NCBI GenBank assembly: GCA_963707275.1
Contig: CAVPPH010000010.1
Span: 44,764-108,763, forward strand
Reading direction: 5' to 3'
Length of the DNA: 64,000 bases
Source of the DNA: an uncultured Chloroflexia bacterium
Lineage (GTDB): Bacteria; Chloroflexota; Anaerolineae; JAAEKA01
In this document: positions 1,281 to 62,238 of the stretch, one piece after another
Layout of the letters: every line of letters starts with the position of its first letter
How positions within the stretch are numbered: position 1 is the stretch's first letter
Notes under the pieces: generated by a model
Seen by the model: only the letters and a program-made list of their open reading frames with translations
What the model was told of the DNA's origin: nothing
Database searches by the model: none
Translations under genes and position numbers: made by a program

Positions 1281-3183
1281 ATGTTTCACAGGAAGTGGGC
1301 CGCACTCTTTGTGGTCGTGATCCTAGCAAGCCTGGCGCTGTCTGCCTGCCAGGCGCCGGCGCCGCCGGCTCAACCGGTGGTTCAGACCGTCGTCGTCCAG
1401 CAGACGGTGGTGCAGACCGTCGTCCAGACAGTCGAGTCGACCGTAGAGACGGTCAAGGAAGTAGTGGTCACCGCGACGCCTGAGGCCGGCGAGAAGGTGA
1501 CGCTCAACATCAATCTCGGCGAGGAGCCGGCGACGCTCGATCCCTCGCTGGTCGCTGACGTCACCTCGGCCGAAGTCGTCGACAACCTGTTCCTGGGCTT
1601 GACCAACATCGGCGCCGATGGCAGCGTCGAGCCGGAGTTGGCCACCGACTGGAGCGTGTCCGACGACCGGCTGACCTACACGTTCAACATGCGCGACGAC
1701 GCGACCTGGGTGACGCTACACACCGTCGGGCGGCATGCAGGAGTTGGGACCGGTCACCGCCTATGACGTGGTCTACGGCGTGCGCCGCACCTGCGACCCG
1801 CGCACGGGATCGACCTACGCCTACATCGACTACATCATCGCCGGCTGCCAGGAGTTGAACACCACCGACCTGAACGGGATGAGTGAGGACGAAATCCAGG
1901 CGCTGGTGGACAGCGTCGGCGTCAGCGCACCCGACAGCTACACCGTCCAGTTCACCGTGGACACGCCGGCTGCCTACTTCCCCGGCATCGCCGGCATGTG
2001 GGGCAACCGGCCGCAGTACCGCGCCGCCATCGAGGCGCACGGCGAGCGCTGGACCGAGCCGGGCTTCATGGTCAGCAACGGCCCCTACACGCTGGTGAGC
2101 TGGTTCCACGGCGACAACATGGCGCTGGAGAAGAACCCCTTCTGGTACGGCTGGGACGAGGCGACCGGCAACATCGAGCGCATCGAGGTGGCCATGGTGC
2201 CGGAAGAGACGACTTCCATTCGCGCTGTACGAGACAGGTGAACTGGACACGGAGTTCGTGCCCGTCGCCGATCGGGAACGTGTCAAGAACGATCCGGTGC
2301 TGAGCCAGGAGTACAGCCGCTGCGCCGCGCGCCTGTACCACCTACGTCGGCTTCACCAACTCCAAGCCGCCCATGGACAACGTACTGGTGCGGCGGGCGC
2401 TGTCGGCCGCCATCGACCGCCAGAGCCTGATCGACAACGTCACTCAAGGACAACCGCATCCCGGCCAACGCCTTTGCGCCGGCTATGATCTTCGGCAACG
2501 CGGCCGGCGACACGGAGATCGCGCCCTGGACGTTGCCTGAAAGCATGGGCGGCTGGGGCTACGAGAAGGCGCTGGCGCAGGCCAAGGAGTGGCTGGCCGA
2601 AGCGGGCTACCCGGACGGGCAGGGCTTCCCGACGATCACCTACATGCACATCAAGAGCGAGAGCGCCAGCCAGATTGCCCAGGCCATCCAGTCGATGTGG
2701 AAGGAGGGACTCGGCATTGATATGCAGATCGAGACGCAGGAGGGCAATGTCGTGCTGAACACGCTCCAACCGACCACGCCTCTGGCAGGAGCGACCGCAC
2801 GCCTGGTTACATGGGCTGGTGCGCCGACTACGCCGACGAGAACAACTGGGTGCACGAGGTGTTCAACAGCGATGAAGGCGCCGAACTGGTTGAGCTGGGA
2901 CGAAAGCGCCAATGCGCCGCTGGGGCCCGGATGGCAAGAGCTTCAACCAGTTGACCAAGGAAGCGCAGTTGACCGAAGATCCGGCCGAACGCCAGGCGCT
3001 ATACCGCGCCGCCGAGAAGATCCTGGTCGACGACGCCGCAGGCTTTGCACCGCTCTACTACCGTCGTGAGCAACGTGAGTAACCAAGCCCTACCTACAGC
3101 GCACCTATCCCAGCATCGGCGGCAACGAGTGGTACAACTGGGTGCTGGATTGGGACGCCAAGCAGAAAGCACTTGGCAACTAG
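1281..3183 (+). pseudogene. ABC transporter substrate-binding protein, family 5 (oligopeptide/dipeptide SBP), lipoprotein signal; broken into >=4 frames
   Basis: ORFs 1281-1766, 1735-2241, 2258-2488, 2485-3069 in different frames align collinearly with intact paralog 9668-11570; TVVQ repeats, LSAC lipobox. Confidence 0.75.
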
Positions 3184-3189
3184 TGCAAG

Positions 3190-5826
3190 TCATGGGGAAG
3201 TCTCTCGATCCTGGACGGCCAGCACTCCTTCCAGGATCGAGACCGGCTTCTGTAATTACTTGGCCGAATGGCTGTCGCTGACCTCGTGTCCACGCAGCAC
3301 CGAAACTTTCCGTGTCAAGATGGGCTTGTGCTGCCTCGATCAGCCGATCGCAGTCGGCTCGGTAGATTGGCCACATGCGATAGTTCTCGTTGTCGGCGGC
3401 ATCAGCCGCGCCAAGCAGGGCAACAGCCAACTCGTACTTGCCCAAGCTCCAGAGCCAGGCTGGCCGGGCCAATGCACCAGAGACTCCATTCATCTCTGTT
3501 GACCGATATTCCTGGCAGACTGGCGCGGTACCAGGGAATTGCGCCTGCGTAATCGCCTTCGTCCTGGACTAACCTCGCTAGGCTAAGGTAGGAGCCACAA
3601 AGATTGGGGTCCTGCTCGTTCCCAAGTTTCTTGAAACGCCGTAGCATCTGGTCTAGAAACGCGTGGGCTGCAACAAAATCCTTCTGTCGAATTGTCGTGA
3701 GAAGTCAGACCAGTAAGTGTTTCCACACTAATGTAGCTTTCCCCGCTTTGCCGCTCGATTGTCATACTTTGTTCGAAGAGCGATCTTGCACGACCGAGAT
3801 CGCCATTTGCATAGGCAACTTCACCCAGCCGGTTCAGTGGCCATGTAAACCCCAGACCTTCCCGTTGCGCAATGGCAAGGTTTTCCTCGCCTAACTCCTG
3901 TGCTCGAACAAAATCACCTCTCACTAAGGCTACTTTTGTGAGGAAAAAGAGAGCCCACGAGACGCCGGAAGGCGATTTAAGTTCTCTGTAACACGCGAGA
4001 GCATTTTCAAGGTACCGATTGGCAGCGGTTGAGTCTTGCAACCACCACAACGCCATTCGTCCCAGAAGCGTCAAGGCATCAGCTTTTCCCTGGTCATATC
4101 CAAAATATGTGCTGATGGCCAGGCATTCTTCAAACATGGTTCGCGCCTGGGCAACCTCTCCCTTGTATAACATGATGATGCCTGCTTCATACAGCACCCT
4201 TGCTCGTGCAATGGTTGGATCTGAGGCACCGGGAAGCGCAAGTATCTTGTCAATCAAATGGATTGCCTCTGCGTAGGGACCTCGCTGACGATACCAACTT
4301 GCAAGATACGCGGTAATGAGCAAGGACGCTTGTCGTTCGTGTTGGATAGCCGAAGCATGGGCTGCACGCATGTTGTGGATTTCGTCATCGATCAGGCGGT
4401 TCGTGCAGTAGGCGTCTAGGATTGGGATCCATTCGATCGGCGTTCTCAACGAGTTGTAAGAAACTGCTGGCATGGCGGGCCCGCAGAGCGTCTTCCTCCC
4501 CGCTGGCAGCCAGCCTCTCCAGGCCGAACTCGCGCACCGTTTCCAGCATTGCATACCGTGTTTCACCGTACAGTCCGATCTCACGCTGCACCAAGTTTCT
4601 TTCTAGAAGCAGGGCGATGCCGCCCAGGACGGTTGCCTCCTGGTTTTCCTGGTCGTTCTTCTCCCCACACACCATCTCGGCGGCCTCCAGCGTGAAGCCG
4701 CCGGCGAAGACCGACAGACGCCGGAACAGCGTCTGCTCGGCCGGCGAGAGCAGGTCGTAGCTCCAGCCGATGGCGCCGCGCAGGGTCTTCTGGCGGGCGG
4801 AGACGTCGCGCAGGCCGTCGGTCGAGAGCAGCCACGGGCCGTGCAGGCGCTGCCAGCAGCTCCTTCGGCGGCAGCAGCTTGACCCGCGCCGCGACCAGCT
4901 CGATGGCCAGCGGCAGGCCGTCCAGCCGGCGGCACAGCTCGGCCACCGCGGCGGCGTTGCCGTCGTCGACGGCGAAGTCGGGCAGCACCGCCTCGGCGCG
5001 GTCGGCGAAGAGTGCTACCGACGGGTAGCGCAGCATGTCGCTGGCCGTGACCACGCTCGCGCCGGCCATCTCGGCCGGCAGCGCCAGCGGCAGGACGTGG
5101 ATCTGCCGTTCGCCGCGCACTCGCAGCGGCTGGCGGCTGGTGACCAGCACGTGCAGCCACGGACAGCGTCGCAGCAGGTCGTCCACCAGCGGCGCGGCGG
5201 CCACGATCTGCTCGAAGTTGTCCAGCACCAGGAGCAGGTGCTTCTCCTCCAGATAGGCGCGCAGTTGCAGTTCCGGCGGGTTGGGACCGCTCATCTGCAA
5301 GCCCAGCGCCTGCGCGATCGCCGCGGCCACCTGGTCGGGGTCGGTGACCGGCGCCAGGCGCACGAAGAAGACGCCGTCGTCGAACTGCTCCAGCACATCC
5401 TCGGCCACGGCCAGGGAGAGCCGCGTCTTGCCGACGCCGGGCGGACCGACGAGGGTGACCAGCCGCGCGCCGTCGCTCAACAGCCGCCGTCGTACCACGG
5501 TGATGTCGTGGGCGCGGCCGATGAGCGGCGTGAGCTGGGCGGGGAGGTTGTTGGGGCGCTGTGGACGCAGCAGGCGCGCGGTGGTCGGTGAAGTCCTCGA
5601 CCGTGCCGCGCGCCAGGGCGATCAGGTCGGGCAGGTCGGCGTCGTCTGCGCCGAGCGCCTGCGCCAGGGACGTGACCAGCGGCGCGGACGGTTGCAGGTC
5701 GCCGCTTTCGATTTTGCGCAGCGTGACCTCGGCGCAGCCCGCCTGCTGCGCCAGCGCTTTCTGTGTCAGCCCCAGCGCCTTGCGCCGTTGTTTGAGCCAG
5801 TGGCCGAAGGTTGTTGTCTTAAGCAT
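3190..5826 (-). pseudogene. STAND-type regulator copy 1: HTH_XRE + NB-ARC (P-loop GPPGVGKT) + TPR; multiple frameshifts
   Basis: ORFs 4603-5826, 4581-5498, 4385-4675, 3583-4584, 3402-3647 (minus) are collinear with intact paralog 16180-18789. Confidence 0.75.
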
Positions 5827-12944: not shown

Positions 12945-15266
12945 ATGAAGCGTTCAGCAGTGTTGGTATTGTTCGCCCTCGTCATCGTGGGGAGTATCGG
13001 ACTGTGGAACGGTCATCCGGTCAGCGCCGATGGCCACACGCAGGGTCTCTGGATCTTCTCCGACGAGATCAGTTCATTGTCGGCGCGTGATACGTTGGTC
13101 CAGCGCAGCGCGGCCAGCGGCGTGACCGACCTCTACCTCAGCGTCTATCATTCTCCCGCCAACAGCGACGGACGCCTGATGTACGAAGATGGTGACCTTG
13201 CCGATCTGATCGACAAGGCACATCTCAGCGGCCTGGCTGCGTGGGCGGCGTACGGCGACACCGTTTGGCCGGCCCTCGGATGTGATCCGGGCGCGTGGCC
13301 CTTGCAGCGCATGGCCGAGGTCGTCGCCTACAACACCGCCAATCCCGCTGCGCCTTTCGACGGCGTCATCCTCGATGTGGAGCCGCCGGAGCCGCAAAGT
13401 GCGGCTGATTTCCAAAACCTGCTGGCGCTCTACCAATGCACCCGCGACTTTCTGCCCGGCAACTTGAAGCTGGCGGTTGCGATCCGATTCTACTGGGATA
13501 CACCCGTGGCATATCCGGCCGGCGGACCGGTCAAGCCGGTCCACCAGCACATCGTCGATCTCGATCTCGACCAGATCGTGGTGATGGGCTACCGCGACTT
13601 CGCCGGCACGGCTAACTGCAACGATGGCGACGGTCTGATCTGCCTCGACCAGGACGAGATCGCCTATGCAGACGCGGCCCTCAAGCCTGACCTGATACTG
13701 GTTGGTCTTGAGACATCGAACTGCTCGCCCGGCTGCGGCCCTGAGAAGGTAACCTTCTTCGAGGAAGGGCAGGCGGTGCTAAGCAGCGAGGCGCAGGCTG
13801 TCGCGGACCACTTTGCCGCGGCCCCCAGCTTCGGCGGCTTCGCCATCCACCGCTACAACGCCTCCTATCTGTCTGGTCAGCCCGATTGGCCGGCCGAGAA
13901 CCCCCCGCCGCCACAGGGCGTGGTGGTCAGGCTGCTGGACAGCCAGGGCAACGGTCTGGCCGGCGGCACGGTGCAATACTACGCCGGCGGGTGGCAGGCC
14001 ATTCCGGGCACCACCGACGCCAGCGGGACCCTGGTTACCGATATTCCCGTGTCCAGCGGCAACCTGAGCTTCCGCATGACCTACGCCAACGCGTCGCAGC
14101 AACTGTCTCAGAACGTGACCGGCAACCCCACTGTCACGTTCCAGACGACCCACGTCACTGTCGAACTGCGAGACAGCTTCGGCAACCTGATCCCGGACGA
14201 GGCGGGAACCGGCACGGTGCAGTACTACGCGGGCGGCTGGCGTGACTTCGGTGTGACCGTGGGTGGGCAGACCAGCAAGGAGTTGCTGCCGCTGAGCTAC
14301 AGCTTCAGCATGAGCTACGCCTTTGGCCGCCAGCAACTGAACGGTCAGAATGTCGCTGCCAACCCGACCGTCACGTTCCAGACGACCCACGTCACCGTGG
14401 AACTGCGCGACAGCAGCGGCAATCTGATCCCCGACGGTGCGGGAACCGGCGCCGTGCAATACTACGCGGGCGGCTGGCGTGACTTCGGTGTGACCGCCGG
14501 TGGGCAGGCCAGCAGGGAACTGCTGCCGCTGACCTACAGTTTCGCCATGACCTACGCCTTCGGCCGCCAGCAGTTGAACGGCCAAGACGTCGGTGCTAAT
14601 CCCACCGTCACGTTCCAGACGAAACAGGTCACCGTGGAACTGCGCGACAGCGGCGGCAACCTGATCCCCGACGCGGCTGGAACCGGGACCGTGCAGTACT
14701 ACGCGGGCGGCTGGCGCGACTTCGGTGTGACGACCGGAGGGCAGGCCAGCAGGGAACTGCTGCCGCTGACCTACAGTTTCGCCATGACCTACGCCTTCGG
14801 CCGCCAGCAGTTGAACGGCCAGGATGTCGCCGCCAACCCGACCGTCACCTTCCAGACGACCCGCGTCACCGTGGAACTGCGCGACAGCAGCGGCAACCCG
14901 ATCTCCAACGAGGCAGGAACCGGGATGGTGCAGTACTACGCCGGCGGCTGGCGTGACTTTGGCGTAACCGCCGGTGGACAGGCAAGCAGGGAACTGCTGC
15001 CGCTGACCTACAGTTTCGCCATGACCTACGCCTTCGGCCGCCAGCAGCTGAACGGCCAGGACGTCAACGCGAACCCGACCGTCACGTTCCAGACTGGCCA
15101 CGTTCACTCAGACAGCGGGACAGCAGTCCAGTACTACGCCGGTGGCTGGCGCAGCTTCGTGCAGGACATGCAGCTTCTGCCCGCTTCGTACACGTTTCAC
15201 TTCAACGACGGGAGCCCGAACCAGGCATATCCAGTCGTGGGCGGCATGATGAACGCGATCCATTGA
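12945..15266 (+). CDS. Secreted 773-aa protein: signal peptide, putative TIM-barrel glycoside-hydrolase-like N-domain (FDGVILDVE motif), then ~5 tandem 79-aa repeats
   Basis: Signal MKRSAVLVLFALVIVGS; repeats NPTVTFQTTHVTVELRDSSGNLIPD..GTG.VQYYAGGWRDFGVTAGGQASRELLPLTYSFAMTYAFGRQQLNGQDV. Confidence 0.65.
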   Translation: MKRSAVLVLFALVIVGSIGLWNGHPVSADGHTQGLWIFSDEISSLSARDTLVQRSAASGVTDLYLSVYHSPANSDGRLMYEDGDLADLIDKAHLSGLAAWAAYGDTVWPALGCDPGAWPLQRMAEVVAYNTANPAAPFDGVILDVEPPEPQSAADFQNLLALYQCTRDFLPGNLKLAVAIRFYWDTPVAYPAGGPVKPVHQHIVDLDLDQIVVMGYRDFAGTANCNDGDGLICLDQDEIAYADAALKPDLILVGLETSNCSPGCGPEKVTFFEEGQAVLSSEAQAVADHFAAAPSFGGFAIHRYNASYLSGQPDWPAENPPPPQGVVVRLLDSQGNGLAGGTVQYYAGGWQAIPGTTDASGTLVTDIPVSSGNLSFRMTYANASQQLSQNVTGNPTVTFQTTHVTVELRDSFGNLIPDEAGTGTVQYYAGGWRDFGVTVGGQTSKELLPLSYSFSMSYAFGRQQLNGQNVAANPTVTFQTTHVTVELRDSSGNLIPDGAGTGAVQYYAGGWRDFGVTAGGQASRELLPLTYSFAMTYAFGRQQLNGQDVGANPTVTFQTKQVTVELRDSGGNLIPDAAGTGTVQYYAGGWRDFGVTTGGQASRELLPLTYSFAMTYAFGRQQLNGQDVAANPTVTFQTTRVTVELRDSSGNPISNEAGTGMVQYYAGGWRDFGVTAGGQASRELLPLTYSFAMTYAFGRQQLNGQDVNANPTVTFQTGHVHSDSGTAVQYYAGGWRSFVQDMQLLPASYTFHFNDGSPNQAYPVVGGMMNAIH
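14113..15110 (+). repeat. Near-identical 237-bp tandem DNA repeats (x ~4.3) inside CDS 12945-15266
   Basis: Period 237 bp at 14113/14359/14596/14833/15070; copies 2-4 differ by only a few nt. Confidence 0.85.
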
Positions 15267-32107: not shown

Positions 32108-32299
32108 AACGTAATGCGTGATACGTACTGCGTAGCTTGTGGGTGGTTTGTCCAGTTGCCAGGCTCACCGATGGTGAAGAAGCATTGGCCCACAGATAGA
32201 AGGAGACGCAGATAGCCTGCGGCGCATTTCGTTACGCAACTCGCAAATCGCAATACGTAATTCGCAATACGTAACACGGAATACGCAATACGAGTTGAC

Positions 32300-38753: not shown

Positions 38754-39774
38754 TGACTCACAGATGGAAAGAAACACAGATGGCTTTCAATGGGTTGTCG
38801 AGTTAGTCGGGTGAGATGCCGTAGATTTGAAGCTGGTTCTTGCCGAAGTTTACAACCACACCCAGCCGCAAGCACAGGTTATTCATGAACGTCTTGGTGC
38901 GGGCGAACTCGTATTTGGGCGGAAACAAGGTCAGTGCACCGACATTGACCAGTACTGTGTCAGCAACCAGCAGGTGATCACCGATGTGCTGGCTCAGCGG
39001 CTCACCATGCAGGCTCGCTTGAAGCTGAACGTCCGAACGACAGGGAATCCCGTTGCATTCCAGTTCCACAGCAAGTGCTCGCCTGAAAGTAGTGGCTGGA
39101 TATCCCAGCTCATGTTGCTGGTAGACCTGAAGAATGCTGTCTCGCACTCTGACAAGAATCGTTCGGTCCCACCTGTTGTGCACTGGTTTGATCTCGTCAT
39201 AGTGCTCAAAAACATCAGGTTCTGGCTCTTGCCACACCACACGCTTGATCTCAGCACTTAACGGCCCAAAATTGACGAGCAATCCGAGCTTCTTTTGCCA
39301 CAGCTTCAGATAACGAATGATCTGGGCAAAGTGTGCTGGAGCAAAGCTGGTAAACGGCAGGACCTTGAGTTCGAGTATGAGGAGGTCCCACAGGATGAGG
39401 TCGCATTCGAACACATCAACGTCAACACCTCGATGCCTTAATGCAAGCCGAGGCTTGGACACGTATGGAATGCTTCTCGCCTCTACCAGGCGAATCAACC
39501 CCTGATGATAGGCCTCTTCGGGCCAACCGATCTTCAATGCGTTATGGGTGTCGAATATCAGCCCTCGCGCCTCGTAGCTCAACTTATTCAGATGCTCATC
39601 GCGCATGGCCCCTCCAAAAACCCATCTGCGAGTCACCTCCGCCTCCAACCGGCCAACGACACGCCCCCTCCAAAAACTCATCTGTGTTTCTTTCCATCTG
39701 TGAGTTAACTCCGCCTCGATCCGGCCAACGACACTACCAAAAGGAAATCAGTGTTTCTTTCCATCTGTGAGTCA
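38754..39774 (-). mobile_element. ~1-kb low-GC insertion bounded by 24-bp inverted repeats, carrying a tandem GxxExxY/PD-(D/E)xK-like gene
   Basis: TGACTCACAGATGGAAAGAAACAC at 38754-38777; reverse complements GTGTTTCTTTCCATCTGTGAGT(T/C)A at 39684-39707 and 39751-39774; three degenerate ~65-bp tandem units at right end; GC drop. Confidence 0.55.
38803..39681 (-). CDS. Tandem GxxExxY-family (PD-(D/E)xK nuclease-like fold) protein
   Basis: Two ~140-aa halves; first with GWPEEAY (GxxExxY) and LLVNFG, second with GYPATTF and VVVNFG. Confidence 0.6.
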   Translation of the reverse strand: MSFWRGRVVGRLEAEVTRRWVFGGAMRDEHLNKLSYEARGLIFDTHNALKIGWPEEAYHQGLIRLVEARSIPYVSKPRLALRHRGVDVDVFECDLILWDLLILELKVLPFTSFAPAHFAQIIRYLKLWQKKLGLLVNFGPLSAEIKRVVWQEPEPDVFEHYDEIKPVHNRWDRTILVRVRDSILQVYQQHELGYPATTFRRALAVELECNGIPCRSDVQLQASLHGEPLSQHIGDHLLVADTVLVNVGALTLFPPKYEFARTKTFMNNLCLRLGVVVNFGKNQLQIYGISPD

Positions 39775-40710
39775 AATCCGCCTCGGCGCAACGACCGTCA
39801 CAACGACTCTGCGCGCGCCAGCAGCCGACAAAGCTGCCACCAGCGGCTCGGCCTCGTCGTCGCGCGCCAGCGCGATCATGTTACCGCCGCGGCCACCGCC
39901 GCTGAGCTTGGCACCCAGCGCGCCGGCTTCTCGCGCCGTGATGCACAGCCGGTCCAGCTCCGGGCTGGAAACGTTCATCTGCTGCAACAGCGCGTGGTTC
40001 TCGTCCATCAAACGGCCCAGCGCGCCGGTGTCGCCGATCTGGATCGCGTCACGGGCTGCCACCACGATATGGCCCACAGCGTCAAACAACGCCTCGTAAC
40101 GCGCCGGCTCAGCCTGCCAGCCGCGGCGCACATCGCCCACAGTGACGCTGGTCGGGCTGGCAATGCCGGTGTCGCCGATCACCAGCGTGACGGGCCGGGC
40201 GACGGCGAACGGCTCCGGCGGCTGGCCGCGCACGAACCAGACCGGCTGCTCGTAAGCCACCACGGTGTTGTCGATGCCGCTGGGCGTGCCGTGAAACAGT
40301 CGCTCACTCTCGAACACCAGCGCCGATATCTCTGAGGCGGTCAGGAACCGGCCCGCGGCAGCAGCGATAGCGCGCACGATCGCGGTGGCCGCCGCCGCGC
40401 CGCTGCCCAGCCCGCTGCTAACCGGAATCGTGCTGCGCAGGATGATATGCCAGTCCGGCGTGGCAATTTCCAGGGCATCCAACGTCGTTCGCGTCACAAG
40501 CGCCAGCGGCTGCATGGTCGGCTCGCCGGTCACCGGCACGGTCTGACCGATGTCGTGCAAATCCAGCACGCAGCCGCTGCCGGGCGTCCCTGGCGTGACT
40601 GTCGCCGTCGCCGTAAGCTGGCTGACCGGCGCAGCGATAGCCGGTCGCCCGTAGACCACCGCGTGCTCGCCGAAGAGAATGATCTTGCCCGGTGCGCTGC
40701 CAGTCTTCAT
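39772..40710 (-). CDS. mvk: Mevalonate kinase (GHMP kinase)
   Basis: GKIILFGEHAVVYG N-terminus; PVSSGLGSGAAAA ATP motif; KLSGGGRGG. Confidence 0.8.
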   Translation of the reverse strand: MKTGSAPGKIILFGEHAVVYGRPAIAAPVSQLTATATVTPGTPGSGCVLDLHDIGQTVPVTGEPTMQPLALVTRTTLDALEIATPDWHIILRSTIPVSSGLGSGAAAATAIVRAIAAAAGRFLTASEISALVFESERLFHGTPSGIDNTVVAYEQPVWFVRGQPPEPFAVARPVTLVIGDTGIASPTSVTVGDVRRGWQAEPARYEALFDAVGHIVVAARDAIQIGDTGALGRLMDENHALLQQMNVSSPELDRLCITAREAGALGAKLSGGGRGGNMIALARDDEAEPLVAALSAAGARRVVVTVVAPRRI

Positions 40711-40887
40711 GCTGCGAGTATAACACAGGAATCACGACTGGCGGAACCAAGGGTGAAGGAGGAGTCAGGCATCCGCAGATGCCAGGCAGCAACAACGTGT
40801 CATTGCCGCGCAGTTACGATGCCGGGTTTGCGGGGGCGATGTCCATCACCGGTCAGGAAGGGCAGATTGAACACCAACGTTCGAGCC

Positions 40888-41448
40888 TCACACAGGTTCA
40901 AGACAGCGGTGCGGCTCCGGCGGAAGCTCGACGCGGATCGAGTTGCCGGCGCGCACGTCGCCGCTGACAATGACGACCGCCATCACGCCCGCCTTGCGAA
41001 CGAGGTTGCCATCCCGGTCGCGATCCAGCACGGCTGCCAACAAGCCAGGTTGGAAATCGTCCAGTTGGTAACAGGGATTGCGCAGGCCGGTGATCTCGAC
41101 GACCGCGGCGTCGCCCAGAGTTAGCCGCGCGCCGGTTGGCAAGGCCAGCAGATCAACGCCCCTGGTCGTGACGTTCTCTCCCATCTGCCCAGGCGCGACC
41201 TGGAAACCCGCCGCGCACAGTTCCTCATGCAGCTCGCTATGGATCAAATGCACCTGGCGCAGGTTGAGTTGCTCTGGATCGCGCGTCATGCGCGACCGAT
41301 GTTTGACCGTCGTGCCTGCGTGTACGTCACCCTCGACACCCAACCCTGCCAGCAGGGCAATACTTGCCCGGTTCGGCTTGCTGAAGGTGTATGAACCGCT
41401 GCTGCTTACCGCAATCACCGTTCCATCCGCCTGTTCATATGCCGTCAT
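40888..41448 (-). CDS. MOSC domain-containing protein
   Basis: GENVTTRG... and overall YiiM-like MOSC pattern. Confidence 0.65.
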   Translation of the reverse strand: MTAYEQADGTVIAVSSSGSYTFSKPNRASIALLAGLGVEGDVHAGTTVKHRSRMTRDPEQLNLRQVHLIHSELHEELCAAGFQVAPGQMGENVTTRGVDLLALPTGARLTLGDAAVVEITGLRNPCYQLDDFQPGLLAAVLDRDRDGNLVRKAGVMAVVIVSGDVRAGNSIRVELPPEPHRCLEPV

Positions 41449-56438: not shown

Positions 56439-57728
56439 TCACGCTATACGAGCGGTTGCCTCGCTCACATAGGGAATAGTCAACGGGCCGTCGGGCATGA
56501 CGCAAATTCTGGCGTATGGGCCGTAGCGTCCTTGCAGATCGGCCACCGTCGCGGCGATGTCGCGGCAGGGGATAAACAGCGCCCGCTCGATCTGTGCGTC
56601 GTTGAGGCCGTCGCTGTAGACGTAGACCTCGGCCCGCTGCTGGATCAGCGCCTGGGTCTGCACCTGCCACTGGTCATGCGCCTGAAAGCCGGGCTGTGCG
56701 ATCAGCTCAAGGATGCCTTGCGGCGAGCCGGCCTGCGCCAGCAATGCGGCGTATTGGCCGTGGTCCGGCAGGCCATCCTCGCAGGCTGCCGCGGCAATGA
56801 TCGCCCCGCCGTCGCGCACCACGCGCGCCGCCACGCTCATCCCCTTCACCGCCTGGTAGAGGTTCTGGTCCAGCGGATAGCCGCTGTTGGTGGTGATCAC
56901 CACGTCGTACGGTTCATCCACCGCCGCCATCGCGCTGGCGCGGACGAACTCGCAGCCGGCCGCGTGCGCCTGCAACATGTCGCCGGCAAAGACGCCGGTG
57001 ATCTGGCGCTCGCTGTTGAGTGTCACGTTGAGCAGAAACGTCGGCTGGGTGCTCAGCGCCACCTCGCGCATCTCTTCCCAGATCGGATTGCCTTCGAGAA
57101 TGCCCCAAGTGGATCGCGGGTCGCCGATCATCTGCACGCCGTGGTTGGTGAAGACGCTCTCTGCGCCGGCCAGCGAGGGCAGGATCGCCTTGGGACCGCC
57201 GCTGAAGCCGGCGAAGAAGTGCGGCTCGATGAAGCCGGTCAGTATCTTGACGTCGGCCGCCATATAGGCGCGGTTGATGCGCACCGGATGGCCGCGACTG
57301 GTCGCTGGCAGGGAAACCAGATTGTCGTCGTCGAAGCAATCGTGCTGCAGGCAGCGGTACGAATCGACGACCGCGTCGCCCAGCATGGCGCGCAGCTCAG
57401 CCTCGGTCTGCTTGCGATGCGTGCCCAGCCCGTTGAGCAGGGTGATGTCATCGCGCTGCACGCCTGCCCCTTCCAACTCAGCCAGCAGCGGCGGCAGGAT
57501 GCGGTCGTTGGGCGTCGCGCGCGTGATGTCGGTGTGCACGATCACCACCGTGTCGCCCGGCTTGACCAGACCAGCCAGCGGCGGCGCCGCGATGGGGTCG
57601 CGCAACGCGGCCAGCAGCGCCGCCTGCTCATCAGGCAGCCCGGCCACAAAGCGCGGCAGGATCACATCCGTCGTGTCGGGCAGATCAACATGGAGGCCGC
57701 TGCGGCCATAGGCCAGTTTCACACGCAT
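56439..57728 (-). CDS. LarA-family (nickel-pincer nucleotide-dependent racemase/epimerase-like; DUF2088) protein
   Basis: 429-aa; VVIVHTDITRATPN N-terminal motif and overall LarA-like pattern. Confidence 0.6.
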   Translation of the reverse strand: MRVKLAYGRSGLHVDLPDTTDVILPRFVAGLPDEQAALLAALRDPIAAPPLAGLVKPGDTVVIVHTDITRATPNDRILPPLLAELEGAGVQRDDITLLNGLGTHRKQTEAELRAMLGDAVVDSYRCLQHDCFDDDNLVSLPATSRGHPVRINRAYMAADVKILTGFIEPHFFAGFSGGPKAILPSLAGAESVFTNHGVQMIGDPRSTWGILEGNPIWEEMREVALSTQPTFLLNVTLNSERQITGVFAGDMLQAHAAGCEFVRASAMAAVDEPYDVVITTNSGYPLDQNLYQAVKGMSVAARVVRDGGAIIAAAACEDGLPDHGQYAALLAQAGSPQGILELIAQPGFQAHDQWQVQTQALIQQRAEVYVYSDGLNDAQIERALFIPCRDIAATVADLQGRYGPYARICVMPDGPLTIPYVSEATARIA

Positions 57729-57731
57729 AAC

Positions 57732-58794
57732 TCACACCATCCAAACGGTTTGTCCCGTCTCGAACGACCGGATCGTGTCCCAGATCATGCGAAACGAGTT
57801 GAGGTTGTCCTGCACAGCGGTCGCCGGACGTTCGCCGCTGCGAACCGCGTGAACAAACTGGTGCAGCAGCAGCGCCTGGCGTTCGCGCGCCATCTTGATC
57901 AGCGGCACGCTCCCAGGCTTTTCGTTCAGGTACTGCGGATAGCCCTGCGGGTCACCGGTTGTGGCAGTGCGCCGCTGCACCGTCACCCGGTCGTCGCGCA
58001 GCAGCAGCACGCCATGCTCGCAGTCGAAGCGCCAGTCGGCGTTCCACGGCGTCTCACGGCCGGTCGCGCACCATGAGCCGGTGTAACTGACCTGCACGCC
58101 GCTGGCGAAGCTGAGCAGCACGCTGGCCGACGAGTCGCCCTTCCACCAGTCCCACGGGGTGCGCCAGGCAGCGACCGTAGATCGACTGCGGTTCACTGCC
58201 CAGGAAGAAGCGCATCATGTCGAAATGGTGGATCGACATATCGACCGTCAGTGGATAGGCCAGCGTGTCGTGGAAGCCGCTGCGGATCAGGCTCTTGAAG
58301 AACTCGACCGTCACCGCGCCCACCGCGCCCAGTTCGCCGGAGGCCAGGATCTGGCGGACGGTCTGCGCCTGGCGCGAGTAGCGGTAGTCCTGCGAAACCA
58401 TGTGCAACACGCCGGTGCGTTCAGCCGCGGCCAGGATCGCCTCACCGGCCTCGATGCTGTCCGCCAGCGGTTTCTCCGACAGGACCGGCACGCCTGCCTC
58501 CAGCGCTGATACCGCCATCTCGCGGTGTGTGGCTGGCGGCGTGACAATCAGCACGCCATCCGGCTGCACGAGGCGTAGCGCATCCACATAGGAAGCGAAA
58601 TGCAGCTTGCTATCCAGGCCATGTTGCTCGAAACGCTCGCGTGCCAGGTCCGGGTTGACCTCGACCGCGGCCACCAGTTCCACCTCGTCAGAGGCGGCGA
58701 TGACGCGCAGCCAGTGGTTGCCCATGCTGCCAAGGCCGGCCAGCAGCAGGCGAAACCGCGGTTGCGCTGGCTCGTGTTGTCTCTTTCTTGCCAT
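57732..58794 (-). CDS. Gfo/Idh/MocA family oxidoreductase; frameshift near 58160
   Basis: N-terminal ORF 58054-58794 (LLAGLGSMGNHW, EKPLA) and C-terminal ORF 57732-58196 collinear in different frames. Confidence 0.65.
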
Positions 58795-58842
58795 CGGATC
58801 ACCTATGACTCATAGCGGGGTTGATGGAATCCGTGAGTCGGC

Positions 58843-59118
58843 GTGTCATAACCGCGGAGTCGGCATCCTCAGATGCCGGGTTCGGGCGCTCACACCGTTC
58901 GCATCGCAGGATGCGAACTCCGCGAAGTGGGCGATCGTTTGATTCGCGGAGTCGGCATCCTTGGATGCCGGGTTCGGGCGTTCACGCCGTTCGCATCGTA
59001 GGATGCGAACTCCGCGGAGTGGGCGATCGTTTGATTCGCGGAGTCGGCATCCTCAGATGCCGGGTTCGGACGCTCACACCGTTCGCATCGGAGGATGCGA
59101 ACTCCGCTGTGGTCCTCA
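58843..59118. repeat. Three tandem copies of a 92-bp structured repeat (internal hairpins CGGCATCC-TCAG-GGATGCCG and GTTCGCATC-GCAG-GATGCGAAC; closing helix CGCGGAGT/ACTCCGCG)
   Basis: Units begin at 58843, 58935, 59027; >90% identical. Confidence 0.85.
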
Positions 59119-60043
59119 GAAGACGCGGTCGATGAACTCGCGATTGTGGACCTCGACCGGGACCTTCTGCAATTCCAGCACGCCTTTGGCAACGTGCTCC
59201 GACAGGCGGCGGAAGGCTTCCTCGCCCTTCTCGCGCGTCGCGCGCATGGGATTGCCGATGGTGCCGCTTTCGATGAACTCGTGGTGGTCCATGGGGAAGG
59301 TGAAGTACTTGTAACCCTGGAACTCCACGTCGGGCATGCCGTCTTTCTTGGCAAAGCTGCGCGGCAGGAAATCAGGGATATGCGCGCGGGTGAAGTCGGC
59401 GCGATCCATGCGCACGTACTTCTCGTTCCAGGCCATGTCCTGCGAGGTCTCCAGCTCGCTGGAATGCCAGCCGGGCGTCTCGTCCAGGGGGTTCTCCATC
59501 AGCCCGGCCAGGATGCCGACGTAGTTCTCCATGTACGGCTTGACGAAGCTGATCAGCGCGCCGGTCTCGTAGCGCAGCTTGCGCAGTACCGGATCGACGA
59601 CCTTGACGTTGCTGCCGTGGCCGTTGACGAAGATGATGCGGTTGAAGCCGTGGTGGATCAGGCTGCGGCCCACATCGTGCAGCAGGTTGAGCAGCGTCGT
59701 GCTGCGGATGGTGATGGTGCCGCGCCCCGACCCCGGCTCGTGCATGTGCTGCGGCGAGTAGCCGGTCCAGATCGGCGGCGCGTGCAGGACACCGATCATC
59801 TCCGCCACCCGCTTGCTGATCTCCACCGCGGTGATGGTGTCGGTGTAGAGCGGCAGGTGCGGCCCGTGCTGCTCGAAGCTGGCCATCGGCACCAGGATCG
59901 TGTCCTTGACCTTCAGATACTCCTGGACATCGACGTAGCTGAGGTTGCCCAGGTCCCAGGAAAGGAACTTGCTGCGAAACTCCTCGTCACCTGCTGGTCA
60001 GGTGCGGGAGGTCTTTGTAATCTCGGCCGTTGTCGGCGATCAT
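59116..60043 (-). CDS. Creatininase-family amidohydrolase; frameshift near 59985
   Basis: EQHGPHLPL, FVNGHGSN motifs; N-terminal 30 aa (MIADNGRDYKDLPHLT..EEFRSKFLSWDLGNLSYVDVQEYLKVKDTILVP) recovered in adjacent frame by own translation. Confidence 0.65.
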
Positions 60044-60914: not shown

Positions 60915-62143
60915 TCACGTTTCACGCATCATTTCGATAAACAACTCCGCCACCTCGACCCCAAACGCCGGATCGTTGACGTGACGCGGATAGGTCAGCA
61001 CCGGGATGTCGGCGCGGATCTCGCTGCGCAGGGTGTCGAGGAAGGCGCGGTCGGCCTCTGGGTCCCAGAAGACGCCGCCCGGCACGTTGGGGATCGACAG
61101 GCCCTCAGTCGGCACGGCGATCACGACCGGCCCCTGCGCCAGGTTGAGCCGTTCGGCAAAGAGATGGCCCAGCGCGACCATCTCGTCGTGCGTCGCGCGC
61201 ACCAGCGTGTACTCCGGGTTGTGGTCGTAGACGGGGCGGCCCTTGAGCGCGTCGGGGATCGCACCGGCGTGGAAGACGCTGAAGTCGATGCAGCCCGGCA
61301 CGACCACCTGCGGCAGGCCCAGCAGGCCGACCCGCTTCAGCCGGTCCGGCCCGCCGTCGTGGATGCCGCCGGTCATCGGGTCGTAGGTCTCGTTGGTGGT
61401 GAAGTCGATGACGCCGACGAACTGGCCCGCTTCGGCCAGCTCCTCCATGGCCGGCCCGCCGACGCCGTTGGAGTGGAAGATCACCGCCTCGTAGCCGGCC
61501 TCAGCCAGCCGATCCTTGAGCGCCATCACGGCCCTGGTCGTGTTGCCCAGCATGGTCACCGCCACGTAGCGGTCGCCCGGCTGCGGCGGCGGCAGGACGT
61601 GGCCATGCTCCACCAGCCCGGCCAGCGCGGCCGCCACGTTGTCGTAGACCGTGGTCGCGATGGGGTTCAGGCCCAGGATGTCCACGATCGAGTGGACGAC
61701 CATGATGTCGCTGGTGCCGACCAGCGGATCGAAGTAGTGCTTGCCCGACGCGATGGGCGACACCAGCACCTTGGGCACGCCGACCGGCAGCACCATCATC
61801 GCCGCCGCGCCCATCACCGCGCCCTCGGCGCCGCCCATGCTGACGATCGCGTCCAGCCGGCCTGCGGCATAGAGCTGGCGCACCAGCACTGTGAGCGCCT
61901 CGCGCATCCCGTGCACCGCCTTGCCGCGGCTGCCGGCGTTGCGCAGCGCGTCGATGGTCGTGCCGCCAGTACAGCGGCCGCTTCCGCCCGGCTGATGTCC
62001 GGCGTGATGCCCAGCGGCTCGCCCAGGATGCCCGAATCGACCACGGTGGTGGTCAGTCCCAGCGCCTGCAACCGGTCGCGCAGATAGGCGATCTCCGGCC
62101 CCTTGGTGTCCAGGGTGCCGATGACGACGACGTTTTTTCCCAT
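60915..62143 (-). CDS. UPF0261 (Tm-1-like) family protein; frameshift near 61950
   Basis: N-terminus MGKNVVVIGTLDTKGPE in ORF 61814-62143; remainder in ORF 60915-61916. Confidence 0.6.
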
Positions 62144-62238
62144 GAGTGGGGCCTGGGGGGTGGGGCCTGGGGTCTGGGGGCTGGAGCCCGAAAATTGGAT
62201 GGCTCTCCAGTCCCTACGTCCCTAGACCCCAGTACCCA

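Follow-up and report, generated by a model that had tools for sequence, protein, structure and literature searches.

In the window, by which we mean the whole 64-kb stretch of DNA that was analysed, a repeat array sits in a 321-bp spacer between a creatininase-family gene and a Gfo/Idh/MocA oxidoreductase gene. Both genes are on the minus strand; creatininase lies upstream, Gfo/Idh/MocA downstream, and LarA follows. The array was located as originally predicted, between the start of the Gfo/Idh/MocA gene and the 3′ end of the creatininase gene. In mRNA sense, it begins 8 nt past the creatininase UGA codon (59116-59118), and 58 nt separate its end from the Gfo/Idh/MocA ATG codon (58792-58794). 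The creatininase was 96% identical to a protein of a Caldilineae MAG, indicating that the window belongs to Chloroflexota. Neither sigma-70-like promoters nor intrinsic-terminator-like sites were seen on scanning positions 58400-59500. With co-directional genes on either side and no such signals, the array is probably transcribed as part of the operon mRNA.

TRF analysis of the window detected a repeat at 58853-59107 (period 92, 2.8 copies, 92% matches, score 454), in agreement with the three tandem 92-bp repeats noticed earlier. The 255-bp array consists of three tandem 92-bp units starting at 58853, 58945, and 59037. Unit 2 was 93% identical to unit 1, and unit 3 was cut off after 71 nt, at 59107. 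The features are listed below by coordinates in the window; the palindromes are labelled REP 1 to REP 6 (REP, repetitive extragenic palindrome) after the identification proposed further on.

40759..40785, plus strand: second family member in the window, solitary and degenerate, GAGGAGT-CAG-GCATC-CGCA-GATGC-CAG, in the gap between minus-strand ORFs 39772-40710 and 40888-41448
57732..58794, minus strand: Gfo/Idh/MocA oxidoreductase gene, downstream (PF01408); two ORFs through one frameshift near 58170-58196, from alignment to the L121 orthologue
58853..59107, no strand assigned: whole cluster, three 92-bp units (third truncated), six REPs, from TRF, copy register, and six core matches
58854..58878, plus strand: REP 1, CG type, tag GCGGAGT (58854-58860) and hairpin CGGCATC-CTCA-GATGCCG; ssDNA hairpin -8.1 kcal/mol, z -3.0
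58879..58896, no strand assigned: intra-doublet linker, 18 nt, GGTTCGGGCGCTCACACC, seen only in the three units
58897..58923, minus strand: REP 2, TC type, inverted, GCGGAGT-TCGCATC-CTGC-GATGCGA-AC on the minus strand; ssDNA hairpin -9.9 kcal/mol, z -3.5
58924..58945, no strand assigned: inter-doublet spacer, 22 nt, GAAGTGGGCGATCGTTTGATTC
58946..58970, plus strand: REP 3, CG type, loop variant CTTG
58971..58988, no strand assigned: linker copy 2, two substitutions
58989..59015, minus strand: REP 4, TC type, minus-strand loop CTAC
59016..59037, no strand assigned: inter-doublet spacer copy 2
59038..59062, plus strand: REP 5, CG type, loop CTCA
59063..59080, no strand assigned: linker copy 3, one substitution
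59081..59107, minus strand: REP 6, TC type, minus-strand loop CTCC; tag 8 nt past the creatininase stop codon in mRNA sense
59116..60043, minus strand: creatininase-family gene, upstream (PF02633, 178.8 bits); one frameshift near 59992 relative to 308-aa orthologues (tblastn frames)

Each unit contained two related palindromes in opposite orientation, giving the order + - + - + - across the six REPs. On the plus strand, a unit reads GCGGAGT-CGGCATC-CTCA-GATGCCG followed by the 18-nt linker; its second half is the reverse complement of GCGGAGT-TCGCATC-CTNC-GATGCGA-AC, followed by the 22-nt spacer to the next unit. The array thus has two subtypes, with a CG stem and a TC/GA stem, both of them perfect. 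The core consensus of the array palindromes was G-N-GGAG-T-NN-GCATC-CTCA-GATGC-NN-A (~25 nt). This shared core occurred six times in the window (1.14 expected), a number reached by none of 100 shuffles. The palindromes were 25-27 nt long with stems of 7-9 bp and loops of 4 nt, the size and stem-loop form of REPs, and the alternation of the 18-nt linker and 22-nt spacer between alternating palindromes is that of BIMEs and REP clusters. Both hairpins first pointed out in the sequence, CGGCATC/GATGCCG and GTTCGCATC/GATGCGAAC, were present in the units, as was the outer complementarity of CGCGGAGT with ACTCCGCG. The differences between copies, which had looked compensatory, turned out to be loop and linker substitutions that preserve no pairing: stems were identical in all three units, and the copies differed in their loops (CTCA vs CTTG; CTGC/CTAC/CTCC on the minus strand) and in three linker substitutions. 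The solitary member at 40759-40785 lies 18 kb from the array and is the only further copy in the window. Two ORFs traverse the array, at 58821-59135 (plus strand, 104 aa) and 58890-59354 (minus strand, 154 aa); they are almost certainly spurious, though gene callers may annotate them.

Folding analysis was performed on single units. As ssDNA, a unit reached -24.7 and -24.9 kcal/mol on the two strands (z -4.7 and -5.3). As RNA, the units reached -40 to -41 kcal/mol, with z of -5.1 to -5.9 relative to shuffled controls. A closing helix containing two hairpins, the fold proposed in the original prediction, was the MFE structure of the unit as ssDNA on both strands and of unit 2 as RNA. The proposal did not extend to the RNA of units 1 and 3, in which a long arm-to-arm hairpin was preferred; this hairpin competes with the three-helix fold.

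A family scan of one genome per species with the pattern GCGGAGTNNGCATCNNNNGATGC yielded at least 120 loci; a fuller family consensus for scanning is GNGGAGYN(2,3)GCATCNNNNGATGC. Among the matches listed, at least 111 loci were in Anaerolineae, Caldilineae, Ardenticatenia, Dehalococcoidia, or unclassified Chloroflexota records, with several to at least 13 loci per MAG. Copies elsewhere, a count of which had been proposed as a check, are thus numerous: the palindrome core was present at more than 110 Chloroflexota loci among the matches listed. Nine listed loci of other taxa had loops unrelated to the Chloroflexota ones and look like chance matches. The loop was CTCA in 149 of the 231 cores among the matches listed, the remainder being mostly CCCT, CCCA, and CTCC. 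The tag abutted the stem, as GCGGAGT in 159 of the listed cores and otherwise as variants such as GAGGAGT and GTGGAGT.

Several architectures were found among the matches listed: isolated tagged hairpins (85 of 178), full palindromes with a tag on both sides (13), tags-outside doublets (17, with gaps of 7-26 nt), and several head-to-tail arrays. Tags-outside doublets of 51-70 nt occurred at about 16 other genomic loci among these matches. Tandem arrays in the family had periods of 83-112 bp and were found in L070 (104 bp, about 25 units), L015, L129, L131, and L163/L184 (91 bp, 4 units). We also scanned metagenomes for the doublet type of the window, i.e., CG hairpin, linker, and TC hairpin. 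A pattern with the exact linker ends of the window (GGTT...ACC) gave zero matches, indicating that this linker is lineage-specific. With the relaxed pattern, 55 loci were found, including two 4-unit tandem arrays with a 91-bp period. Their linkers were semi-conserved, and more than 45 flanks differed, which marks more than 45 distinct sites in one metagenome series.

By crude ORF calling, 75 of 104 clusters among the matches listed were intergenic (53 unidirectional, 11 convergent, 11 divergent), and 29 were "inside" an ORF, most of them at the end of the ORF or in a short ORF of doubtful status. The copies in related genomes are thus dispersed, mainly extragenic, and placed in unidirectional or convergent contexts, as REPs are. 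In the survey by Di Nocera et al. 2013 (PMC3733652), REP dimers recur in tandem together with the DNA that flanks them and lie mostly between unidirectional or convergent ORFs; our listed counts agree with this preference. Of 64 family clusters among the matches listed, 21 were within 20 nt of a stop codon, a weak statistic since short spacers force proximity.

Covariation was analysed in 132 unique cores, in which two stem positions are free. These positions were TC/GA in 26 cores, GC/GC in 18, CC/GG in 12, CG/CG in 7, CT/AG in 2, and TT/AA in 1, i.e., six Watson-Crick combinations, the complementary substitutions that are typical of REPs. The commonest subtype of the family was a GA/GA tandem mismatch (31 of the 132). 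The stem covariation indicates that the hairpin is under selection; the stem is kept up by compensatory changes. The closing helix is formed by two inverted tags with one variable position, which had a Watson-Crick pair in 25 of 105 doublets (36.9 ± 4.6 expected by shuffling). Pairing below chance indicates that what is conserved in the tags is a sequence motif (G-N-GGAG), not a helix. When copies were collected, as the original prediction had advised, covariation was therefore evident in the hairpin stems and absent from the closing helix.

A search of Rfam, also advised at the outset, matched no family: there was no match at the gathering threshold in the whole window, and a permissive E-value gave only implausible sub-threshold matches (plant miRNA models and radC), the best of which was a plant miRNA (34.6 bits vs 268). 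As a possible sign of function at the RNA level, orientation bias was tested in isolated copies flanked by co-directional genes: 24 had the same orientation as transcription and 15 the opposite, a bias that was not significant (p=0.2).

Four relatives (L121-L124) share the gene order of the window and differ in the creatininase-Gfo spacer, as follows.

L124: creatininase-Gfo spacer of 12 bp, no element
L121, L122: one perfect palindrome with a 14-bp stem, beginning 8 nt past the stop codon
L123 (identical creatininase protein): doublet with a 17-nt linker; contig ends inside the doublet
Window: three doublets (six palindromes) in the same spacer

The site is insertion- and expansion-polymorphic, with 0, 1, 2, or 6 palindromes. 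This pattern is the one expected from insertion followed by local amplification, not from a conserved operon regulator. The possibility that the repeats form a multi-site regulatory array was not supported, since close relatives lack the element in this spacer or have a single palindrome there.

Other differences were observed in this gene neighbourhood. The window has one frameshift each in the Gfo/Idh/MocA (57732-58794), creatininase (59116-60043), and UPF0261 (60918-62143) genes, all on the minus strand, relative to orthologues 71-96% identical; these reflect either indel errors of long-read assembly or a decaying operon. A PIN-domain ORF (PF01850; 60089-60547, minus strand) is present in the ~870-bp spacer between UPF0261 and creatininase, which is ~96 bp long in L121; it may be an inserted toxin-antitoxin module. 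An AP_endonuc_2 gene (xylose isomerase-like TIM barrel) lies between Gfo and LarA in L121 (8122-8967) and L125. It is absent from the window, where the corresponding region is 57728-57732 and tblastn gave no match, and is seemingly absent in L124 as well.

A candidate enzyme for the family was found in L070. An ORF with HUH (HMHLVL) and YLHYNPV motifs was located between two arrays of a 104-bp unit, and this unit consists of two inverted palindromes of the same REP family. The protein scored 130.3 bits against NCBIfam NF047646 REP_Tyr_transpos (cutoff 80), also matched Pfam Y1_Tnp, and scored 27 bits against NF033573 (IS200 transposase; cutoff 55). It aligned to the E. coli TnpArep structure 4ER8 over the HUH and Tyr motifs (E=1.5e-10). 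Its homologues (335 at E<=1e-10) measured about 179 aa and were for the most part encoded on contigs of roughly 1 kb, which is expected if repeat arrays flank the gene. Four independent loci (L070, L128, L129, and L131/L132) had palindromes to either side of a gene for a REP-associated tyrosine transposase (RAYT), an HUH/Y1 nuclease. Six further RAYT loci were examined: in L128, L129, and L131/L132 there was a palindrome on each side of the gene within 13-160 nt, and in the remaining two (L127 and L130) no flanking palindrome of this core was detected; REPs there may be diverged or absent. A cognate RAYT gene flanked by the same REPs, the arrangement that defines REPIN-RAYT systems, was thus found in related genomes, L127 and L130 excepted. 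The RAYT loci had no tnpB-like partner, and their flanks were REP arrays, not defined left and right ends. In the 64-kb window, no RAYT gene was found by a HUH/Tyr regular expression or by tblastn with eight RAYT queries (E<=1). By analogy with the related genomes, the REPs in the window's own genome would likewise depend on a RAYT.

Two further features were seen in these contigs. L075 contains a RAYT-like ORF (2626-3447, plus strand; 274 aa) with a long N-terminal extension, scoring 74.9 bits against the cutoff of 80; it has no adjacent palindromes, and the nearest doublet is 2.2 kb off. In L070, at a distance of 2 kb from the RAYT gene and REP arrays, there is a tandem repeat unrelated to REP (1501-1717, 95 bp x 2.3).

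These findings make it very probable that the array is a locally amplified REP/BIME-type cluster in a Caldilineae operon and not an operon-specific structured RNA. Of the readings offered in the original prediction, that of a REP-like element is the one that stood: the unit of the array is a doublet in which a tagged palindrome is paired with its inverted counterpart, and this palindrome is scattered through Chloroflexota genomes, has a BIME/REPIN-like layout, and flanks RAYT genes in relatives. Membership of a known REP or MITE family had been named as evidence against a new element, and such a match exists at the level of kind. The family with the GGAG tag itself seems to be an undescribed member of the known REP kind, and its palindrome sequence was not found in the searchable literature.

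In organisation, the closest known system is E. coli BIME-2 (y and z2 REP types; Bachellier; Ton-Hoang et al. 2012, PMC3333891). Both have two subtypes of tagged palindrome in inverted arrangement, two alternating spacers (a short linker and a second, flanking one), tandem repetition, an intergenic position within operons, and a cognate Y1/HUH TnpA-REP gene with these elements on either side, in our case in related genomes. They differ in the tag (G-N-GGAG here, GTAG in E. coli) and in the host (Chloroflexota, not Enterobacteria), and the hairpin described here is shorter (7-9 bp stem, 4-nt loop CTCA). E. coli TnpA-REP recognises the REP hairpin and 5′ GTAG on single-stranded DNA, needs non-complementary stem bases, and can cleave and join strands, adding BIME units (PMC3333891). 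In contrast to BIME-2, the subtypes in the window have perfect stems, whereas the commonest subtype of the family has the tandem G-A mismatch. Binding and cleavage of the GGAG-tagged hairpin by the RAYT, in the manner of E. coli TnpA-REP, are putative. The array also resembles REPIN-RAYT systems (Bertels & Rainey 2011, PMC3116915; PMC3337134), in which two inverted REPs separated by a short spacer are able to form a single long hairpin, slightly differing doublets occur at many loci, and the RAYT gene is flanked by repeats. However, those systems are mainly from Pseudomonas and other Proteobacteria, and the present family has many singletons and linkers that differ strongly between genomes.

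The REP super-families described in the 2013 survey carry GTAG or CGTC tags, and GGAG is not among the GTAG degenerations listed there (GYAG, GYRG, GTRG, GTMG, GTGG; PMC3733652). In that survey, the only Chloroflexi REPs are those of GTAG-23, from Thermomicrobium roseum and Roseiflexus castenholzii (PMC3733652). GTAG-23 shares with the present family the phylum and a strong clustering or grouping of elements. It differs in its GTAG tag, in an apparently different GC-rich stem, judged here via the peptides that the survey text reports it to encode inside ORFs (GAAQPRTY, DEAALHPY), and in its hosts, which are Thermomicrobia and Chloroflexia there and Anaerolineae/Caldilineae here. We tentatively propose, as a reading with somewhat less than even chances, that the GGAG-tagged GCATC-CTCA-GATGC palindrome and the ~179-aa RAYT constitute an undescribed REP/REPIN-RAYT system whose tag, stem, and loop are almost unchanged across Anaerolineae, Caldilineae, and Ardenticatenia. 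If so, GGAG would be a third tag class beside GTAG and CGTC, and REP conservation would be unusually deep, which would imply that repeat and enzyme have long been inherited together, vertically, outside Proteobacteria.

An alternative at the RNA level is a structured cis-regulatory or noncoding RNA, a three-helix junction in three copies that regulates the creatininase/Gfo/LarA operon. Folding of the RNA units far below shuffled controls (-40 to -41 kcal/mol), the position between co-directional genes, where transcription is probable, and stem covariation across the family are what such an RNA would show. However, relatives with a 96%-identical creatininase lack the element (L124) or have a single palindrome (L121/L122), the same element occurs beside unrelated genes at more than 100 unrelated loci among the matches listed, and at the variable position of the closing helix, pairs are fewer than chance would give. 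Together with the lack of an Rfam match, the non-significant 24:15 orientation, the competition between two folds, and copy differences that are not compensatory, this makes a regulatory RNA very unlikely; it is largely refuted by the polymorphism and the missing closing-helix covariation, and the undescribed repetitive ncRNA considered originally falls with it. A REP cluster co-opted by the host is compatible with the REP/BIME interpretation. By analogy with E. coli, the hairpins might stabilise mRNA or act as a decay barrier that sets the creatininase:Gfo ratio, or the array might bind nucleoid protein or gyrase, a role suggested for BIMEs in E. coli. REPs of that species shield the mRNA upstream of them from 3′ exonucleases and, when they lie within about 15 nt of a stop codon, reduce translation. 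The hairpins here are very stable, the array starts 8 nt past a stop codon within an operon, a third of family members are within 20 nt of a stop codon, and unidirectional contexts are preferred. On the other hand, a range of 0 to 6 palindromes at the site among close relatives argues against strongly selected dosage, closeness to stop codons is weak evidence where spacers are short, and with three neighbouring genes each frameshifted in the assembly the operon is maybe not intact. We regard co-option as unlikely.

The doublet is a ~70-nt inverted repeat and in this respect MITE-like, and IS200/IS605 Y1 transposases also recognise subterminal hairpins. The elements could on these grounds be MITEs of a conventional (DDE) insertion sequence or IS200/IS605 ends, and the L070 protein does match NF033573 weakly. 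The combination of an ssDNA hairpin, an adjacent short guide or tag, and an HUH/Y1 enzyme is one the family appears to share with IS200/IS605. However, there is no IS body and no tnpB, copies far outnumber the enzyme gene, and the protein scores as a RAYT: 130 bits against a cutoff of 80 for the RAYT equivalog, compared with 27 against 55 for the IS200 transposase. The RAYT loci are flanked by REP arrays, not by defined ends; single 25-nt hairpins, too short for a MITE, make up 85 of 178 members among the matches listed; and a non-exhaustive search found no DDE transposase recurring beside copies. An insertion-sequence origin of either type is scarcely credible. Palindromic repeats at regular spacing could also suggest a CRISPR-like or other spacer-acquiring array, but the linker and the inter-doublet "spacer" each keep one sequence throughout the array, successive repeats are oppositely oriented, and there are no adjacent cas genes; the probability of such an array is negligible. 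The CRISPR and DDE-MITE readings were both rejected on anatomy.

For the REP/BIME-type cluster, the following origin may be proposed. A REP or REP doublet would have arrived 8 nt downstream of the creatininase stop codon, probably through a RAYT of the host lineage that seeded the site by acting on single-stranded DNA hairpins, with the GGAG tag in the role of E. coli GTAG. Three units would then have arisen from the doublet and 22 nt of adjacent sequence by local amplification, for which the RAYT, through cleavage and strand transfer, is one possible agent and slippage or unequal recombination among units another. As the units are still 93% identical, the amplification was probably recent. 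In the operon mRNA, the stable hairpins could, purely by analogy with what REPs do in E. coli, form a barrier to 3′ exonucleases, or interfere with termination 8 nt upstream or with re-initiation. Any such effect would be a side effect and not the reason the element exists.

For the window, the result has annotation value: the 255-bp array is best annotated as a repeat cluster and not as a gene, riboswitch, or small RNA. Anaerolineae and Caldilineae, in which the family is abundant, rank among the major bacteria of wastewater, sediments, and hot springs, and almost all that is known of them comes from MAGs. RAYT genes lie mostly on ~1-kb contigs and the L123 contig ends inside a doublet; the repeats evidently break assemblies, and in Chloroflexota metagenomes the family seems often to be responsible for such breaks. 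A defined consensus should be of use in assembly and strain typing and in following how REPIN-RAYT systems evolve outside Proteobacteria. The 0, 1, 2, or 6 palindromes behind one stop codon form a natural allelic series for REP effects on operon expression.

Other tandem repeats were present in the window. A repeat at 14119-15094 (237 bp, 4.1 copies, 87% matches) has a period divisible by three and probably encodes repeated protein domains. Two heptamer arrays were also found, TACGCAA x8.6 at 32233-32292 and TGGGGCC x6 at 62146-62188.
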